DNA of 64,000 bases from a virus. Shown here in pieces: positions 2,926 to 12,026 of this stretch. The notes beneath the pieces are model-generated. The model was not told the DNA's origin. It made no database searches and saw only the letters and a program-made list of their open reading frames with translations. A program made the position numbers and the translations under genes. The stretch is from the IMG/VR virus record IMGVR_UViG_3300028029_000178, positions 412-64,411 of that record; one strand, 5' to 3'. The stretch's first letter is position 1. Every line of letters starts with the position of its first letter.

Positions 2926-3810
2926 ATGAAAGTAGCAGTTATTGTAGGGAGATTCCAAGCTCCATATTTACATAGTGGGCACCAAAAATTAATTTACACT
3001 GCGTTTCAACAATGTGAAAGAGTTATTATTTTTATAGGATCCTCTATAGTAAGAGGAGATAGAAATCCTCTTCCATATGAACTAATACGAAGAGGTGTAC
3101 AAAATTTACATGGTAGTGTAGAAGTGCATCAACTTCGAGATGAAAAAATTGACAATGTATGGCTAGATAGTCTTTTTGGGAAAGTAAAAGATTTAACAGA
3201 CAGTGCAGATGAAATACTGTATTATGGCTCCAGGGATTCTTTTTTAACAAGCTTACCTGAAGACAAAAATACTGTAAATGTAGAGGCAGTTGAAGGTGAC
3301 TTATCTGCTACTAAATTAAGAAATAGCGTACACTACAGAGATAATCGTTGGTTTTTTGAAGGTTATATCAAAGCTGTACAAGATGAGTTTCCAGCACACT
3401 ATGCTGTAGTAGATGCAGTTATAACAGATGGTGTAAATGTTTTGTTAGGACATAAAAAATCAGGATATTGTATTATAGGAGGTTTCGCAGATAGCTGCGA
3501 TAAATCTTTAGAGGATGCAATTATAAGAGAGGTAAAAGAGGAAACAAATTTAGATGTTTCTAATCCTGAATATCTAATGTCTGCTCAATTAAAAGATTGG
3601 AGATATAAAAATGCAAGGCAGCCATTTACTTCAGTTTTTGTGCTAAAGGTAGAAAATTTTGAAAATGTTAAGGCACAAGACGATATAGATGAAATAAAAA
3701 TTGTACCTTTGACTGAGGCAGAAAACTATCTTCCTGTAAATGGAACTCATATAACTATAATTAAAAAATACTTAGATGTCCGCAATAAACGCTTTCAAGA
3801 ACGCAAATAA
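2926..3810 (+). CDS. nadM: Bifunctional NMN adenylyltransferase / Nudix (ADP-ribose) hydrolase (NadM-Nudix, NatV-like)
   Basis: VGRFQ..LHSGH (HxGH), SAT motif (LSATKLR), Nudix box GGFADSCDKSLEDAIIREVKEETNL. Confidence 0.88.
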   Translation: MKVAVIVGRFQAPYLHSGHQKLIYTAFQQCERVIIFIGSSIVRGDRNPLPYELIRRGVQNLHGSVEVHQLRDEKIDNVWLDSLFGKVKDLTDSADEILYYGSRDSFLTSLPEDKNTVNVEAVEGDLSATKLRNSVHYRDNRWFFEGYIKAVQDEFPAHYAVVDAVITDGVNVLLGHKKSGYCIIGGFADSCDKSLEDAIIREVKEETNLDVSNPEYLMSAQLKDWRYKNARQPFTSVFVLKVENFENVKAQDDIDEIKIVPLTEAENYLPVNGTHITIIKKYLDVRNKRFQERK

Positions 3811-4657
3811 AAGAAAACATGATAGAGGTTGGGATACTCTTTATATCTTATTAGATATTCATGGGACAGTAATGAAGAATAATTGGGATGGTATAGCACA
3901 CGAATTTTATCCTTTGGCTATTGAAACTCTTCAAGAAATAAGCAAAGATCCAACATATAAAATAATTATGTGGACTTGCTCTAAAGAAGAAGATAGAAAA
4001 GTCTATAAAAAATTATTAGAAGATAGAGGTATAAATATCTATGCTGTAAATGAGAATCCAGATACAGAGGGAACTTTAGATTGGGGAGATTATAGTCAAA
4101 AATTGTATTGTAATGTACTTTTAGATGATAAAGCAGGATTTGATCCCGATAAAGAATGGCAAGAAATTCTAGACTACTTAACTTACGAAGAAAGAAATAA
4201 AAATATGAATAGACTTGAACTTAAAAACATTGAAACTCCAACAGACCTATTTGTATTTGGTGCAGATTTTGACAGTGTGCCAAAACTATTTAGTATTTCA
4301 GATGATTATTCGTATATAGGGTTAAAATTTAAAGATAGTACTTCTTATTTACATACGGTGGGTTTCGTATTTGTGTATACTTTAGAGGAATTAAGAAAAG
4401 TTTGGAGTAGATTAGAAGAGGACTCAAAATATATTTTCCCTGAGTACTATTGTATTCATATTAAAAACTACTCAGGGAAAATATCTTTGACATCAGAAGA
4501 GGATATAGATTTGTCTGACATCGATTTAAAAGAATATTTACAAGATCAAACAAATTCAGATGATTGGGTAGATTTTTTATTAGAGTTAGACTGTAATAAA
4601 ATAGAAGCTAAGAATTTAGCTTATGAAGAAGTTAATAAAATGGTAGAAAATGTTTAA
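3776..4657 (+). CDS. HAD-superfamily hydrolase-like domain fused to an unknown C-terminal domain
   Basis: LLDIHGT (motif I variant), MWTC (motif II), LLDDKAG (motif IV) in the first ~140 aa. An in-frame ATG at 4205 after an A-rich stretch suggests a fused second gene. Confidence 0.6.
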   Translation: MSAINAFKNANKRKHDRGWDTLYILLDIHGTVMKNNWDGIAHEFYPLAIETLQEISKDPTYKIIMWTCSKEEDRKVYKKLLEDRGINIYAVNENPDTEGTLDWGDYSQKLYCNVLLDDKAGFDPDKEWQEILDYLTYEERNKNMNRLELKNIETPTDLFVFGADFDSVPKLFSISDDYSYIGLKFKDSTSYLHTVGFVFVYTLEELRKVWSRLEEDSKYIFPEYYCIHIKNYSGKISLTSEEDIDLSDIDLKEYLQDQTNSDDWVDFLLELDCNKIEAKNLAYEEVNKMVENV

Positions 4658-7007
4658 AAGAAACGAAATACTAGACAGAGATTTATATAAAATAGGGCAC
4701 TGGCTTCAATTGAGAAAAGCCTATGAATGGTTTTCTTCTTATATGGAGGCTAGAAATGGGGCAAAACACCCTTATGTTTATTGTATAGGGTTAAGCTATT
4801 TAATCCAAAAACATTATTCAGAAGTGCCATCTCTTGAGGATATAAAAATTGCTGAAAAAGTTACAAAAAAAGCTGTAGGTTTTGATATATTGAATACAGA
4901 GGTGTGGGAAAAAGTAAATAAATTAGGATATTACCCTATGCTTATTAAAGGTATTCCTGAGGGGACAAAAACTCCAATAGGAGTGCCTCAATTTATAATT
5001 GAACCAACAGAAGCTTGGTTCGCTTCTTCTTTAAATGGGGAAGAAACTAAATTAATGCGTTCTTGGTATATATCTGCGGTTACAACCAGATTGATGATTT
5101 TAAAAGAAAGGTTAAAACCTATGTTTGAAATAGCTGGATGTTTAGAGGCTCTTGATTTTAGTGTAAATGGTTTTGAAGCTAGAAGTGCAACCAGTGGAGA
5201 GACCTCTGATATCGCAGGTATGTTTAGTCTATTTACCTCTAGAGGCTCTGATAATATACATGGCCAACATATGCTTAATTACTATTACCAAGGTGGAGAA
5301 GATAGATTAAAATCTGTATGGGCATGTTATGATGATGAAACTGAGGTTTTAACTGAAAACGGGTTTAAACTATTTAAAGACTCAAAAGAAGATGAAAAAG
5401 TAGCTCAGTATAATGATGATGGTTCAATAGATTTTGTTATACCTACTTTTAGATACGCTGATAAGTATAAAGGAGATTTGATAAATTTTTCTGATGAAAA
5501 AGGAAATATTTTAAATCTGACAGTTACACCTAATCATAAAATGGTATTACTAGGATCAGATGGAAAATTATTACCTTTAAGAGAAGCTAGTGAAGAGTTA
5601 AAGGAAATAGAAGGTATACCTTTAAGTGGAGTAGTGAAAGGTGAGTTAGAGGATTTATCTTTTATAGATAAATTGCGAATAGCTTTCCAAGCTGATGGGT
5701 CTTTTTCTTCTAGAAAAGAAAGCTACACAGGGGAGAAAACTGGAAGCATACCTATAGGATTCAGTTTAAAGAGGGAGGATAAAGTTAAAAACTTAGATTA
5801 TATTTTAAGTAACTTAGACTTAGATTTTTCAAAAAATAAATACGAAAATGGATACTACTCTTATAGAATAGCTATACCAACGAGTATTGAATTCAAAAAA
5901 GATTTCAGTTGGATAGATATAACTAAATTATCTAGAAAATGGATTTTAAGTTTTTTCTTAGAGTTATGTGAATGGGACGGAACTCATAATAAAACTAGAA
6001 CAAACAATATGAGTTACTTATCTATAGACAAAAATTGTGTTGAAAAAGTACAAACCCTTGCCCACTTATGTGGAGGAAAAGCTACTTTTTATGAGTATAT
6101 AGATAAAAGAGAAGATTGTGATAGAAAAGTTCAATATAGAACTAGTATAAATTTTGCTATTGACAGTATAAAATGTTATAAGCTGAAAAGGACTTCAAAA
6201 ACCTATGATGGAATTGTGTATTGTGTAGGTGTTCCCTCAAAAAAACTAGTAGTGAGAAAAAAAGGAGCTATTAGCATTTGTGGTAACACTGAACATTCTT
6301 GTGCCTTATCTTTTGGACCAGGTGAGGGAGAGTATGATTATGTTAAAGCTCAATTATCAACTCACACAGATCAGATTAAATCTATTGTAATTGATACATA
6401 TAGTACAAAGAATTTTATTAATCTTGTGATGACAAGAGAGGATATTAGAGCTTTAGTTGTTGCACATAAAGGTAAAATAGTTCTTCGTAATGACTCAGGA
6501 GATATAATAACAATGATACAATATATTCTTGATTCTTTAGCTAATTTTTATGGAACGCATATTAATAATAAAGGATTTACTGTTCTTAATGAGAATTTAG
6601 GAGTAATGCAAGCAGACGGAGTTAATCCTGAAAGTGTCGTAGATCTTTACGAATATATACTTGATTGTAACTGGTCTCCAGAAAATCTAGTAGTAGGTGG
6701 AGGAACTGGGCTTATGTTTGATGAACTTACAAGAGATTTTAACAGAAATGCAATTAAACCATCTGTAAATAGGATTGATGGAGAACTAATCAATGTAAAT
6801 AAAGTTGTAGCTAGTGATCCAACTAAAGGCTCTAAACCAGGTATATTAAAAGTAGATAAAAATTTAACAACCCATTCTAGTGTAGATTACTCAGAGGAGG
6901 AATTTGCTAAAATAGAATGTATAATGGTACCCTATTATAATAATGGAGAAATCCTTATTAATTCTTTTGATAGAGTATTTAATAACCTTAATAAAAAAGG
7001 GATTTAA
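4650..7007 (+). CDS. nadV: Nicotinamide phosphoribosyltransferase (NAMPT/NadV) precursor containing an intein
   Basis: DLYKIGH, GFEAR, GSDN, SVWA|TEHS, SIVIDTY, VLRNDSGD, MQADG, VVGGG motifs. Removing the intein leaves 464 aa, a typical NAMPT size. Confidence 0.9.
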   Translation: MFKRNEILDRDLYKIGHWLQLRKAYEWFSSYMEARNGAKHPYVYCIGLSYLIQKHYSEVPSLEDIKIAEKVTKKAVGFDILNTEVWEKVNKLGYYPMLIKGIPEGTKTPIGVPQFIIEPTEAWFASSLNGEETKLMRSWYISAVTTRLMILKERLKPMFEIAGCLEALDFSVNGFEARSATSGETSDIAGMFSLFTSRGSDNIHGQHMLNYYYQGGEDRLKSVWACYDDETEVLTENGFKLFKDSKEDEKVAQYNDDGSIDFVIPTFRYADKYKGDLINFSDEKGNILNLTVTPNHKMVLLGSDGKLLPLREASEELKEIEGIPLSGVVKGELEDLSFIDKLRIAFQADGSFSSRKESYTGEKTGSIPIGFSLKREDKVKNLDYILSNLDLDFSKNKYENGYYSYRIAIPTSIEFKKDFSWIDITKLSRKWILSFFLELCEWDGTHNKTRTNNMSYLSIDKNCVEKVQTLAHLCGGKATFYEYIDKREDCDRKVQYRTSINFAIDSIKCYKLKRTSKTYDGIVYCVGVPSKKLVVRKKGAISICGNTEHSCALSFGPGEGEYDYVKAQLSTHTDQIKSIVIDTYSTKNFINLVMTREDIRALVVAHKGKIVLRNDSGDIITMIQYILDSLANFYGTHINNKGFTVLNENLGVMQADGVNPESVVDLYEYILDCNWSPENLVVGGGTGLMFDELTRDFNRNAIKPSVNRIDGELINVNKVVASDPTKGSKPGILKVDKNLTTHSSVDYSEEEFAKIECIMVPYYNNGEILINSFDRVFNNLNKKGI
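5325..6287 (+). mobile_element. Intein (321 aa, LAGLIDADG-type) in NAMPT
   Basis: Starts CYDDETEVLT (block A); LTVTPNH (block B); AFQADGS and LCEWDG endonuclease blocks; ends VYCVGVPSKKLVVRKKGAISICGN; +1 residue is Thr. Confidence 0.9.
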
Positions 7008-8193: not shown

Positions 8194-8323
8194 AAAACAT
8201 AGTACAAGAAAATTAAATACTACAAGTTTTATAGAACGTGCTAAAAAAGTGCATGGTGTAGTTCACAGTGAATTAAGAGAAATAAACAAGCAATTTAAAA
8301 AATTAAAATATGTTAAAACTTAG
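8174..8323 (+). pseudogene. Relic of homing-endonuclease N-terminal repeat (FIxxAKKVHG type), 49-aa mini-ORF
   Basis: Translates MMIGEIEKHSTRKLNTTSFIERAKKVHGVVHSELREINKQFKKLKYVKT. Overlaps the nrdB stop and the nrdA start. Confidence 0.6.
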
Positions 8324-11300
8324 TTGGCTCAAAAATGACCAAAGAAAAGTATTAAGAAGAGGATATTTAGAAAAAGGAGAGACACCAGAAGAACGTTACC
8401 AAACAATATGTGACACTGTACAAAAGTATAGCTCAAAGATAACACCCTTAGATACAAGCAAAATGTTTGGGTATACTACTATAGGAATAAAAGAGAGATT
8501 TGAAGAGTATTTTACAAATAATTGGGTAAGTTTAGCGACTCCAGTTCTAAGTAGTTTTGGTAGAAAGTATAACTTGCCTATTTCCTGCAATCATTCTATT
8601 TTAGAAGATTCTTTAGATAATATATATAAAGGTCTTCATGAAATAGGAATGTTAGCCAAACATGGGGCTGGAACTGCTGTGAATTTTTCTGATTTACGTC
8701 CTATAGGTTCTAAAATATCTACAGGTGGAAAGTCTAATTCTATAATGGATTTTATCGAACTTTACGCTGATATGATGAGCAAAACTGCTCAAAACTGTTA
8801 TAAAGATGATGTAGAAGTACTTACAACTGAGGGATGGCAATTATTTAAGAATTTGACTCCTACTTCTTATGTAGCATCAGTATTAGATAATGACTCTATC
8901 GAATTTGTAATACCTACTGAACATTTTAAATATGATTTTGAAGGAGATTTAATAAACTTTAAAGATTCTAAAAATGTGGATATCTCAGTAACAGATAATC
9001 ATAATATGGTTTTTAAACGTAGAAATAGAGTTAGTGGTACTAAGAGTATTGAAGGTAAATATATTTCTAATGTAAAAGAGATAAAGAATGAGTTTTATCT
9101 CAAAGAAGCTAAAGATGTTCCTACACATAGAGAGATTTTTATGTATAAGGCATCTATGAAAACAGGTAATTCTGTGTTAACTTTTAAAGAAAAACTATTA
9201 ATAGCCTATCAAGCAGATGGTTCTATATCCTCTAAAAACTGTATAAGATTTCATTTCTCTAAACAAAGGAAAATAAGGGAACTAAGGTCTATTTTAAATA
9301 AATTAGATTATAAATTTTCAGAGACTATTACTAAAGAAGGTACAACTAAATTTCATGTAAATTGTAGAGAAGAGTTTTCTAAGTATTTTAATTGGATAGA
9401 CTTAAATATTATTGATAGTAATTGGGGGAAAGAGTTTCTTTTAGAGATTTCTAAATGGGATTCTTCTACAATAAATAATTCTTACAATAGTTTTCAATAT
9501 TTTTCTGTAGAAGAAACTAATATAAATACAGTACAGGCTATTTGTGCTTTAACTGGATATTCGTCTACTAAAACAGTTTCTACACCTACTAATAATATAC
9601 AACCACTTTTTGCTTTGTATATAAGTGAGAAAAGACATTTTGGATTGGAGAAAATGAAACCTACTAAAGAATATTATAAAGGTAGTGTGTATTGTGTAGA
9701 AGTACCATCTAATAAACTGATAGTTAGAAGTAATGGTAGGACTTTAATTTGTGGAAATTCTCAGAGAAGAGGGTTTTTAACTGCATATTTATCATTAGAC
9801 CACCCTGAAATAATGGATTTTTTAGACATTGGAACAGAGGCAATTCCTGTAGAAAAGCAAAGATTTTTTCAAACGATTACAACAGGAGTTATAATTCCTG
9901 ATGGTTGGAGAGAAGAACTAAAAAACGGAGATAGGGCTAAAAGAAAGATTTTTCAAAAAGTTTTAAACACCAGAAAAGAAATTGGATATCCTTATATATT
10001 AGATGAAGAAAATTCTAACAAAGGTATTTGTCAGGCTTACATAGATAAAGGAATGAAAATTAAAGGTAGCAATATTTGTGTTACTCCTGATACTAAAATA
10101 CTTACTGATAAAGGTTATATTGAAATAGGTACTTTAGTTAACAAAACTATTAAAGTGTGGAATGGAGAAGAATTTTCTAAAACTGTTGTTAAAAAAACAG
10201 GAGAAAATCAACCTATTTTAAAAATAACTGTTGACTCAGGACAAAGTATTAAAAATACTTACCAACATCACTATTATAAAATGGTAGAAGAAAGTAATAA
10301 AAAATATATAAGAGTAGCTGCTGAAGATTTAGTTATTGGAGATAGATTGATAAAATTTAATTTACCTGTTATAGAAGGAGTTAAAGAACTATCTTATTCT
10401 TATACCCAAGGATTTTATAGTGGAGATGGTACATGTAATAAAGAAGGTAAAGCCTTGATTTCCTTATATGATAAAAAAATGTTATTAGTAGATAAAATAA
10501 GTGTAAGAAATAAATTTACACAAAAAGGCTTGGCTTCTAAAGAAACAAATATTAAGGCTGTATACTATAGAAAAGAAGGTAATAGAATAGATTGCACTCT
10601 TCCTAAAGATATTAATAAAAATAAACTATTTATTCCAAATACTATTTATAGCATAGAGAGTAGATTAAAATGGTTAGCTGGCTTATTAGATGCAGATGGA
10701 TGTATAGATAAAAATAAAAAAGCACAAGGCATTCAACTAGTTTCTGTCAACAAAGATTTTTTATTAGAATTACAACTAATGTTACAAACATTGGGTTGCA
10801 ATTCCTCTATAAAAAGTTTTAAAGAAGAAGGGAATAAGTTATTACCTAAGAATGATGGAAGTGGAGAATTAGCTGAATTTTTATGTAAAAAAACATATAG
10901 AATGTTAATATCTCCTACTTATGTAACTCATTTATATAAAATTGGATTAACAACATATAGACTCATATACAATAGTATTCCACTTAATAGAAATAGTGAA
11001 CATTTTATAAAAATAAAAAAAATTACAAAAGATAAAAATTCAGATACTTTTTGTTTCACAGAACCTAAGAGAAATATGGGGATGTTTAATGGAATTCTTA
11101 CAGGGCAATGTATTGAAGCAATGGAATACTGTGATTATGAAAAAACATTTGCCTGTTGTTTATCTGCTGTAAACTTGTATTACTTTGATGATTTTAAAGA
11201 CCACCCTTATTTTATTAAGGATATGAATATATTGTTGGATTGTGTTATAGAAGAATACATAGAAAAAGGTAGTAAGTTATCAGGATTAGAAAAAGCTGTT

Positions 11301-12026
11301 AAGTTTGCTAAGGAGCATAGGGCTATAGGGTTAGGAACTACCGCATTCCACAGTTACTTGCAGAAAAATAGTATTGCTTTTGATTCTTTACAGTCTTATC
11401 AAGCTAATTTTAAGATATTCTCTCTGCTTAGAAAAGAATCAGATGAGGCCTCTAAATGGATGGCTGCTAATTGGGGAGAGCCTAAGATTCTTAAAGGGTA
11501 TGGAGAAAGAAATACTAGTAGAATGGCACAGGCACCTAAAAAATCAACTACATTTATAGATGGTGGAATTCATTTAGCTTTATCTGAGGGGATAGAGCCT
11601 CATAAATTTAATTATGGTGAAAAGAAAGTAGCCAAGATCCAGGTAGAGTTTAAAAATAGAGAATTAGAACAGACTCTTATAAAGTATGATAAAAATACTG
11701 AGGAAATTTGGGATAGTATGCTAGATAACAATGGCAGTATTCAACATCTTAATTTTCTATCTGACCATGAGAAAGAAGTGTTTAAAACTTTTTCTGAAAT
11801 CTCCCAAGCTGCTGTTATTAAATTAGCAGGACAGAGACAACAATTTATAGATATGGGGCAATCTATAAACATAATGATTCATCCCGATACATCTGCAAAA
11901 GATATTATAAAATTACACTTAATGGCATTTGATGAGGGATTAAAATCTCTTTATTATCAAAATAGTATCAATGCCTCTCAAATGTTAGCTACCTCTCTTT
12001 TAGAGTGTAGTGCATGTGAAGGATAA
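8310..12026 (+). CDS. nrdA: Ribonucleotide reductase class Ia alpha subunit precursor with two inteins
   Basis: SLATPV, ISCN, GAGTA, spliced GSNI-CIE (thiyl Cys), ACCLSAVNL, AIGLG, AQAPKKST, KSLYY, C-terminal CSAC. Exteins total 573 aa. Confidence 0.95.
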   Translation: MLKLSWLKNDQRKVLRRGYLEKGETPEERYQTICDTVQKYSSKITPLDTSKMFGYTTIGIKERFEEYFTNNWVSLATPVLSSFGRKYNLPISCNHSILEDSLDNIYKGLHEIGMLAKHGAGTAVNFSDLRPIGSKISTGGKSNSIMDFIELYADMMSKTAQNCYKDDVEVLTTEGWQLFKNLTPTSYVASVLDNDSIEFVIPTEHFKYDFEGDLINFKDSKNVDISVTDNHNMVFKRRNRVSGTKSIEGKYISNVKEIKNEFYLKEAKDVPTHREIFMYKASMKTGNSVLTFKEKLLIAYQADGSISSKNCIRFHFSKQRKIRELRSILNKLDYKFSETITKEGTTKFHVNCREEFSKYFNWIDLNIIDSNWGKEFLLEISKWDSSTINNSYNSFQYFSVEETNINTVQAICALTGYSSTKTVSTPTNNIQPLFALYISEKRHFGLEKMKPTKEYYKGSVYCVEVPSNKLIVRSNGRTLICGNSQRRGFLTAYLSLDHPEIMDFLDIGTEAIPVEKQRFFQTITTGVIIPDGWREELKNGDRAKRKIFQKVLNTRKEIGYPYILDEENSNKGICQAYIDKGMKIKGSNICVTPDTKILTDKGYIEIGTLVNKTIKVWNGEEFSKTVVKKTGENQPILKITVDSGQSIKNTYQHHYYKMVEESNKKYIRVAAEDLVIGDRLIKFNLPVIEGVKELSYSYTQGFYSGDGTCNKEGKALISLYDKKMLLVDKISVRNKFTQKGLASKETNIKAVYYRKEGNRIDCTLPKDINKNKLFIPNTIYSIESRLKWLAGLLDADGCIDKNKKAQGIQLVSVNKDFLLELQLMLQTLGCNSSIKSFKEEGNKLLPKNDGSGELAEFLCKKTYRMLISPTYVTHLYKIGLTTYRLIYNSIPLNRNSEHFIKIKKITKDKNSDTFCFTEPKRNMGMFNGILTGQCIEAMEYCDYEKTFACCLSAVNLYYFDDFKDHPYFIKDMNILLDCVIEEYIEKGSKLSGLEKAVKFAKEHRAIGLGTTAFHSYLQKNSIAFDSLQSYQANFKIFSLLRKESDEASKWMAANWGEPKILKGYGERNTSRMAQAPKKSTTFIDGGIHLALSEGIEPHKFNYGEKKVAKIQVEFKNRELEQTLIKYDKNTEEIWDSMLDNNGSIQHLNFLSDHEKEVFKTFSEISQAAVIKLAGQRQQFIDMGQSINIMIHPDTSAKDIIKLHLMAFDEGLKSLYYQNSINASQMLATSLLECSACEG
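8796..9758 (+). mobile_element. Intein 1 of NrdA (321 aa, LAGLIDADG-type)
   Basis: CYKDDVEVLT ... SVTDNH ... AYQADGS ... ISKWDS ... VYCVEVPSNKLIVRSNGRTLICGN; +1 Ser; host site KTAQN|SQRRG. Confidence 0.9.
10077..11108 (+). mobile_element. Intein 2 of NrdA (344 aa, LAGLIDADG, C-terminal Gln)
   Basis: CVTPDTKILT ... GFYSGDG ... WLAGLLDADG ... TFCFTEPKRNMGMFNGILTGQ. The +1 Cys is the catalytic Cys of NxCxE. Confidence 0.92.

Follow-up and report, generated by a model that had tools for sequence, protein, structure and literature searches.

The NAMPT gene (nadV) of an uncultured phage, carried on a 64,000-nucleotide stretch of viral DNA (positions 412 to 64,411 of the IMG/VR virus record IMGVR_UViG_3300028029_000178, hereafter the window), is split at the codons of its active site by an in-frame insert of 321 codons. 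Taken as a whole, the evidence is best explained if this insert, at nucleotides 5325-6287, is a genuine homing-endonuclease intein that both splices and homes, a reading that we consider highly probable. The choice of host gene gives the element wider interest, as NAMPT/Namat is the core enzyme with which phages reconstitute nicotinamide adenine dinucleotide (NAD+) against NAD-depleting immunity systems such as Thoeris, DSR and SIR2-HerA.

An intein within the active site of NAMPT

The open reading frame (ORF) at 4650-7007 on the plus strand of the window encodes a NAMPT of 785 aa. A script that locates junction peptides placed the intein at residues 226-546, bounded by SVWA|CYDDETEV on its N-terminal side and by ICGN|TEHS (residues 543-550) on its C-terminal side; once it is taken out, 464 aa remain and the reading frame is kept. 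An initial annotation, made from the letters of the window alone, had called a complete intein of this length splitting SVWA|TEHS, the equivalent of the PAxEHS motif, and its coordinates proved exact, with a Hint domain, a LAGLIDADG domain and a matching fold to support the call. It had further claimed that removal of the insert yields a normal enzyme of 464 aa, which agrees with the Pfam domains, the catalytic residues and the lengths of the homologues described below. Its naming of Thr as the +1 nucleophile holds for the residue, which is encoded by ACT at 6288-6290, while the role of nucleophile remains a presumptive one.

The two halves of the host protein are unambiguous. The Pfam domains NAMPT_N (residues 7-89) and NAPRTase (residues 596-739) flank the insert on either side, and a phmmer search of solved structures matched human and other NAMPTs with E-values of about 1e-35 to 1e-38, the alignment coming in two stretches that halt and resume at the insert. 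TEHS of the window aligns with human A245-E246-H247-S248, and the insertion point lies between the equivalents of Ala244 and Ala245, two residues ahead of that of His247. In the human enzyme His247 is catalytic and becomes autophosphorylated. Structure alignments further showed that the equivalents of Tyr18, Phe193, Arg196, Asp219, His247, Arg311 and Asp313 are all kept, as are those of Asp354, the GGG loop and Arg392; because these catalytic residues are present, the spliced NAMPT should be a competent enzyme.

The boundaries agree with naturally uninterrupted alleles, a comparison that the initial annotation had named as a check. Seven homologues without an intein, 461-471 aa long and 59-77% identical to the window extein, came from a large collection of proteins, and every one of them reads ...SVWA-TEH(S/A/N)CALS... 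without a gap over the predicted junction. One of the seven is encoded on a contig of 85 kb (L005), and its nucleotide sequence around the site agrees with the joined flanks of the window at 73 of 90 positions. Judged by sequence comparison, the similarity of the insert to an intein in the nrdA gene of the same window (E 5e-45) and to thousands of other inteins is far beyond chance. Fusion of a domain other than an intein was also considered; the residues at the junctions, the fold and the alleles that lack the insert rule it out.

Conservation and fold of the splicing and endonuclease domains

The element starts with Cys1, carries a TxxH block B and ends with Asn321 followed by Thr+1. In an alignment of 55 related inteins, Cys1, His71, Gly320 and Asn321 are invariant, while Thr68 (of TxxH) and Cys300 are each kept in at least 90%. 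The endonuclease domain is similarly well preserved: its first LAGLIDADG motif, IAFQADGS, contains Asp124 (5694-5696; kept in 50 of 55), its second, LELCEWDG, contains Asp218 (5976-5978; 53 of 55), and Lys192 (5898-5900) is found in 50 of 55. An AlphaFold2 model built on the same alignment reached a mean predicted local distance difference test (pLDDT) score of 96.9 and a predicted template-modelling (pTM) score of 0.93, and places the two LAGLIDADG helices at residues 113-124 and 204-215, each with a catalytic acidic residue. Foldseek matched this model over both domains to TliVMA, PI-PfuI and PI-SceI (E 5e-15 to 1e-9); the Hint lobe matched AceL NrdHF and hedgehog Hint domains, and the endonuclease lobe matched I-DmoI.

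In a search with intein hidden Markov models, which the initial annotation had also named as a check, the curated models all remained below threshold on the NAMPT intein. Pfam LAGLIDADG_3 (PF14528) scored 19.2 bits where its cut-off is 22.5, and TIGR01445 (intein_Nterm), over residues 1-74 of the intein, scored 22.3 bits where its cut-off is 24.5 (E 2e-4). Because the curated models score below their cut-offs, this family of inteins is probably under-called by annotation pipelines, and the low scores probably explain why such inteins lack annotation. Pfam Intein_splicing and Hint as well as TIGR01443 and TIGR01445 fall below their cut-offs both at 5325-6287 and at the nrdA intein at 8796-9758, and the precomputed Pfam lists of all intein-bearing NAMPTs hold NAMPT domains alone.

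NAMPT as a recurrent intein host

Searching 50,697 phage records by tblastn, we found NAMPT in 1,225 and the intein family in 108, of which 11 carry the intein inside NAMPT. Two insertion points account for these. Site a (..IPA|C...SGN|TEHS), which is that of the window, is occupied in five Staphylococcus Twortvirinae (Stab23, phiSNIID, O1-102, B2-102 and T2-102). Site b (VIRPD|C...CGN|SGDP) falls in the motif corresponding to human R311-P-D313 and is occupied in six records, namely those of Staphylococcus phages Stab20, Clo6, T-SE-G1, T-SE-G2 and V1SA09 and of Citrobacter phage Tr1. The Stab23 record (LR215720 g198) has a Hint domain annotated. Among metagenomic proteins, 34 NAMPT clusters with the site-a intein came from a first protein search, and an exhaustive profile search added 23 site-a and 24 site-b clusters among its best 150 representatives, bringing site a to at least 57 metagenomic NAMPT clusters. 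Two metagenomic NAMPTs, P0011 (1124 aa) and P0083 (1114 aa), contain both inteins, at PA|TEHS and RPD|SGD. The intein family as a whole comprises 8,239 clusters at 50% identity (E up to 1e-30), with further hosts that include the alpha and beta subunits of ribonucleotide reductase (RNR), DNA polymerase I, primase, helicases and portal proteins.

The initial annotation had regarded NAMPT as an unusual host, a view that the numbers above do not sustain. It had also stated that a large set of catalogued NAMPT inteins at this site would remove the novelty but not the call, and this is the situation encountered: the assignment as an intein stands and most of the novelty is lost. A NAMPT or NadV intein is nevertheless undescribed in the full-text literature that was searched, which included the Stab phage paper, surveys of actinobacteriophage inteins and the NARP paper, with InBase outside its scope. 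The window intein is thus a new example of an existing, database-visible and apparently unpublished allele. NAMPT emerges as a recurrent intein host, invaded at two active-site positions in cultured and uncultured phages alike, and the list of intein hosts is thereby widened past the nucleic-acid-binding proteins emphasised in phage surveys. On a practical note, phage NAMPT precursors of this kind that are cloned or assayed must splice before they can show activity.

Evidence for mobility

The intein and its host gene have different histories. The window intein is 65.4% identical to that of a metagenomic NAMPT (P0002), the exteins being only 48.9% identical, and against phiSNIID the corresponding values are 42.6% and 27.6%. 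In the extein tree the window falls within a strongly supported clade of eight members, the other seven of which are intein-free, and P0002 is the sister of this clade; in the tree of inteins the window is grouped with P0002 at 100% support. Homing is indicated because the intein is better conserved than the gene that hosts it and because the seven nearest exteins are intein-free.

A second line of evidence comes from Staphylococcus Kayvirus, where 489-aa NAMPT exteins that are 96.7% identical occur in three states, either empty or with an intein at site a or at site b. The intein-free state is represented by fRuSau02 (PMC5618024) and the occupied states by phiSNIID (locus L001), Stab23 (L002) and Stab20 (L004); the site-a and site-b inteins of these phages are 40.9% identical to one another. 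As far as such comparisons reach, the overall pattern is the one that homing at a conserved target would be expected to leave through gains and losses, and homing is supported indirectly. The suggestion of the initial annotation that a conserved site sustains homing is likewise supported, by the excess of intein over extein identity, the empty nearest exteins and the three Kayvirus allele states. These three-state alleles also constitute a culturable system for the study of homing.

Splicing chemistry and competing interpretations

Certain observations weigh against an intein that splices and homes, and deserve to be considered together. The penultimate His (G:6) is absent, its place being taken by Gly320, and block F likewise lacks its His. 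Both histidines are common among inteins without being obligatory. The curated Pfam and NCBIfam intein models, as noted, give only sub-threshold matches. Intein-bearing NAMPTs with distant exteins were over-sampled, the intein itself having served as seed of the protein searches. There is no sign of very recent transfer, since the nearest intein, that of P0002, is only 65% identical. Contigs of the source sample mapped on the region revealed neither an intein-skipping joint nor variants, a result that is uninformative on polymorphism. Finally, the endonuclease could be inactive, its intact motifs notwithstanding.

The missing histidines raise the question of whether the element has decayed into a non-splicing remnant, leaving nadV a dead gene in this phage, a view to which the sub-cut-off scores of standard intein models could also be adduced. 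Set against it are the 785-codon frame, which is open, a family consensus residue at every catalytic position, the intact catalytic residues of the extein, and the Gly-Asn end, which is the norm of the family (260 of 271 inteins in a wider alignment). In the related Bethlehem gp51 intein, moreover, changing this Gly to His leads to accumulation of precursor (PMC5050341), and splicing without the histidines has precedent, because AceL NrdHF and Bethlehem gp51 both splice without them. Decay is accordingly scarcely credible.

A more serious question is which nucleophile begins the reaction. Cys300 (codon 6222-6224) aligns with the canonical block-F (F:4) Asp of PI-PkoII in a C-terminal profile, a weak alignment; the last 45 residues, searched as a single sequence against solved structures, gave no match, and the C-terminal profile did not recover 6zgq, the AceL NrdHF structure, which carries C124A and N146A. 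Of the 271 family inteins, 268 have Cys1 and 257 have Cys at F:4, while Gly320 is kept in 260 and Asn321 in 262; the +1 residue is Ser in 145, Thr in 67 and Cys in 58, and the position of Cys319 is Ser or Thr in many members. F:4 is Gly, Ser or Asp in 14 inteins, every one of which retains Cys1, while a single intein starts with Pro and retains the F:4 Cys, so that no member is without both residues. Position 1 and F:4 covary in this alignment (for example in P0218, P0063, P0070 and P0081).

A class 3-like route, in which Cys300 attacks the N-terminal junction and the branched thioester is passed to Thr+1 with Cys1 dispensable or auxiliary, draws on several of these features. AceL NrdHF, the closest relative with a solved structure, has been proven to belong to class 3 and displays the same unusual residues: Arg or Lys at B:11, Met at B:12, Cys at F:4 followed by a Pro kink, and a [C/S/T]-Gly-Asn end with neither the F:13 nor the G:6 His. 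The initial annotation had overlooked both this kinship to a class 3 intein and the atypical catalytic residues of the window intein (Cys300 in block F and Cys319-Gly320-Asn321, the penultimate His being absent). The near-constancy of the F:4 Cys, its retention in the Pro-initial member and the dominance of Ser and Thr at +1, as in class 3 (PMC2807308), point in the same direction. The conservation of Cys1, however, is unexpected of a dispensable residue, and Cys1 can suffice, because the 14 members without an F:4 Cys all retain it. Thr at B:7 (TxxH) is a class 1 hallmark, and the related Bethlehem gp51 intein has been treated as class 1 (PMC5050341). By definition class 3 inteins lack a nucleophile at position 1, where the window intein has Cys1, and of the WCT triplet (Trp B:12, Cys F:4, Thr G:5) the window, with Met73, Cys300 and Cys319, fits at F:4 alone. 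We therefore judge the class 3-like route rather unlikely, and think it somewhat probable that splicing begins as in class 1, at Cys1, and that Cys300 acts as helper or relay. Insofar as alignments can tell, the family seems to link class 1 inteins with those of class 3; because it combines Cys1 with the block-F Cys, and no member lacks both, it offers a natural system for how class 3 arose from class 1.

The three cysteines invite a regulatory reading as well, in which a disulfide or a metal at Cys1, Cys300 and Cys319 would hold back splicing until the redox or metal state changes, and so time a counter-defence that consumes phosphoribosyl pyrophosphate (PRPP). All three do occupy catalytic positions, and the precursor must be inactive because sites a and b both fall within the active site of NAMPT; NARP2 reportedly imposes a metabolic cost through its consumption of PRPP (Osterman et al.), and mycobacterial DnaB inteins are reported to differ in their response to environmental stressors (PMC6195587). 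The same residues are nonetheless found in family inteins of RNR, DNA polymerase, primase, helicase and portal genes, which makes the cysteines a trait of the family and not an adaptation to NAMPT. The Ser or Thr that many members have at the position of Cys319, the seven closest NAMPT relatives that do without any intein, and the general rule that selfish inteins insert in active sites argue against a switch in the same manner, and we regard it as very unlikely. Little credence attaches either to the combined proposal that a Cys1 to Cys300 to Thr+1 relay, lying between classes 1 and 3, is sensitive to redox or zinc in NAMPT/Namat, with its two repeatedly occupied active-site positions, and switches the PRPP-consuming enzyme on post-translationally in certain infection conditions only. 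Redox or metal gating of splicing, which the initial annotation had suggested as a control on an anti-defence NAD pathway, is speculation to which the results lend no support. Most likely, the window intein is an ordinary selfish intein, primarily selfish and tolerated because it splices.

A proposed life cycle

The comparisons above establish the anatomy, limits, fold and family of the window intein, its sporadic occurrence and the discordance between intein and extein; we infer splicing, endonuclease activity and the order of the chemical steps as follows. The nadV gene would be translated as a 785-aa precursor, which cannot be active because the insert splits the active site two residues before the His247 equivalent. 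The Hint domain would then excise itself and join SVWA to TEHS, giving the 464-aa NAMPT. The first step is most likely formation of a thioester at Cys1, after which the N-extein would be moved to Thr+1, possibly via the block-F Cys300; Asn321 would cyclise without the help of a penultimate His, and an O-N shift would complete the peptide bond. Together with the neighbouring enzyme, a fusion of nicotinamide mononucleotide (NMN) adenylyltransferase (NMNAT) and Nudix domains, the mature NAMPT may rebuild NAD+ in the NARP2 manner. In a co-infection, the LAGLIDADG domain would cut intein-free nadV at the conserved active-site codons, and the intein would be copied in (homing).

Genomic context

The features discussed here are collected in Table 1. 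The window, with a GC content of 30%, derives from a 64.7-kb IMG/VR virus fragment that is estimated to be 45% complete. Among cultured phages, its nearest relatives are phi4:1 and phi17:2 of Cellulophaga. This link, the only one to a cultured phage, comes from a 1087-aa ORF that is 31% identical to structural proteins of these two, one of a series of very large virion-type ORFs at 35963-61060 on the minus strand (1838, 2010, 959, 1087 and 2019 aa); a megablast search with 24 kb of window sequence gave no match among cultured phages. Sequencing runs matching the window comprise an epibiont metagenome, the probable source, and a run from a hydrothermal vent in which the share of words is 9%, and none of the matching runs is an RNA run. 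In the hydrothermal-vent run (X2), two 151-nt contigs are identical to parts of the C-extein (6356-6506 and 6633-6783), which suggests that the same or a near-identical phage occurs in a second habitat, at low depth and with fragmentary coverage.

Table 1. Coordinates of the NAMPT intein, its host gene and related features of the window
Feature	Position	Strand	Evidence and remarks
NMNAT-Nudix gene	2926..3810	+	Pfam NUDIX at aa 160-275; PHROG cytidyltransferase at aa 2-59 and MutT/NUDIX at aa 149-278
N-extein of NAMPT, aa 1-225, ends SVWA	4650..5324	+	PF18127 NAMPT_N; aligns to human NAMPT about 10-233
Intein, 321 aa, Hint domain with inserted LAGLIDADG	5325..6287	+	Junctions, intein-free alleles, AlphaFold2 model, Foldseek
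Hint N-lobe, intein aa 1-107	5325..5645	+	Cys1 at 5325-5327; block B T68-P-N-H71-K72-M73 at 5526-5543
LAGLIDADG homing-endonuclease domain, about intein aa 108-283	5646..6173	+	Conserved acidic residues, helices, I-DmoI match
Hint C-lobe, about intein aa 284-321	6174..6287	+	Block F VYC(300)VGVP; block G I-C319-G320-N321
C-extein of NAMPT, aa 547-785 and stop	6288..7007	+	PF04095 at aa 596-739; aligns to human NAMPT 245-476
Catalytic His codon (human His247 equivalent)	6294-6296	+	Structure alignment
Family intein in nrdA, 321 aa	8796..9758	+	33% identical to the NAMPT intein over full length, E 5e-45

The NMNAT-Nudix gene lies two genes upstream of NAMPT, and the same pair is present on two related contigs (L005 and L006), in the order NMNAT-Nudix, small ORF, NAMPT on L005. 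We provisionally label it a NARP2-type pair, the label coming from a neighbouring gene in a fragment that is about 45% complete; the NARP2 arrangement counters NAD-depleting defences (Osterman et al.). In the Staphylococcus phages, NAMPT adjoins a PRPP-synthetase-like gene, which fits the NARP1 arrangement. If the window is of the NARP2 type and the Staphylococcus phages are of the NARP1 type, the intein is present in both branches of the NAMPT family. Between NMNAT-Nudix and NAMPT of the window stands an ORF of 293 aa (3776-4657, plus strand) that matches PHROG 1238 ('phosphoheptose isomerase') over aa 20-148 only, and the C-terminal half of which appears to be an addition because its counterparts on L005 and L006 measure only 137-146 aa.

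The nrdA gene of the window (8310-12026) contains two inteins, and its RNR extein amounts to 573 aa without them. The NAMPT intein and nrdA intein 1 are 33-37% identical and are not grouped in the intein tree. The possibility that the NAMPT intein is a recent copy of the nrdA intein was rejected on this identity and on the separate tree positions, the NAMPT intein pairing with that of P0002; since nrdA intein 1 is not its nearest relative, nothing points to a recent intragenomic jump. The second nrdA intein (344 aa; 10077-11108, plus strand) interrupts the catalytic motif SN(I)|C-I-E and has a block-F Cys (DTFCFTEP). Its last residue, preceded by Thr-Gly, is Gln in place of Asn (..ILTGQ|C); it is recognised by Pfam Intein_splicing and LAGLIDADG_3.

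Comparison with known systems

The closest known counterparts are the site-a NAMPT inteins of the Staphylococcus phages, which at 323 aa are 41-43% identical to the window intein, occupy the same insertion point (..PA|C...GN|TEHS) and likewise have Hint and LAGLIDADG domains and the corresponding Cys1, TPNH, VHC..VP and SGN residues. Their hosts are Herelleviridae of Firmicutes, whereas the window is that of a Bacteroidota-type phage, and the interrupted enzyme is only 27.6% identical to the window NAMPT, with an adjoining PRPP-synthetase-like gene that fits an Adps/Namat pair of the NARP1 type and not NARP2. The site-b inteins belong to the same family (32-36% identical) and likewise strike a catalytic motif of the same enzyme, R311-P-D313, but they are inserted about 65 residues downstream and have Ser at +1.

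Among solved structures, AceL NrdHF-1-1 (PDB 6zgq) is the best sequence relative of the Hint domain (family profile E 5.7e-12; template-modelling score 0.81 over the target). The two share the (S/T)PNH-R/K-M block B (SPNHRM aligned to TPNHRM), the F:4 Cys, the Pro kink and the X-Gly-Asn end, and both lack the two histidines. AceL NrdHF is class 3, with Ala1, S-P-N-H-R-M, an obligate F:4 Cys124, a Pro-Gly kink and T-G-N|S (Hoffmann et al. 2020, PMC7891396); its triplet is M-C-T, and His at the Gly position abolishes its activity (PMC7891396). The window intein differs in having Cys1 where AceL has Ala1 and Cys at G:5 where AceL has Thr, and in being contiguous with a LAGLIDADG domain, whereas AceL, a proven class 3 intein residing in nrdHF, is naturally split around a free-standing GIY-YIG endonuclease gene.

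The intein of mycobacteriophage Bethlehem gp51, a recombination directionality factor (RDF)/metallophosphoesterase, can be aligned with the window intein from end to end and shares with it Cys1, TxNH, a block-F Cys (VWCLRVP in gp51), a Gly-Asn end (TGN in gp51) and a LAGLIDADG domain, though at only 22% identity, in another host protein and in an actinobacteriophage. It splices, and its Gly-to-His mutant accumulates precursor (Kelley et al. 2016, PMC5050341). PI-SceI, PI-PfuI and TliVMA, of yeast or archaeal hosts, are more remote: 10-15% identical, they have Asp at F:4 and a His-Asn end, and yet they display the same two-domain architecture and fold and presumably obey the same homing logic.

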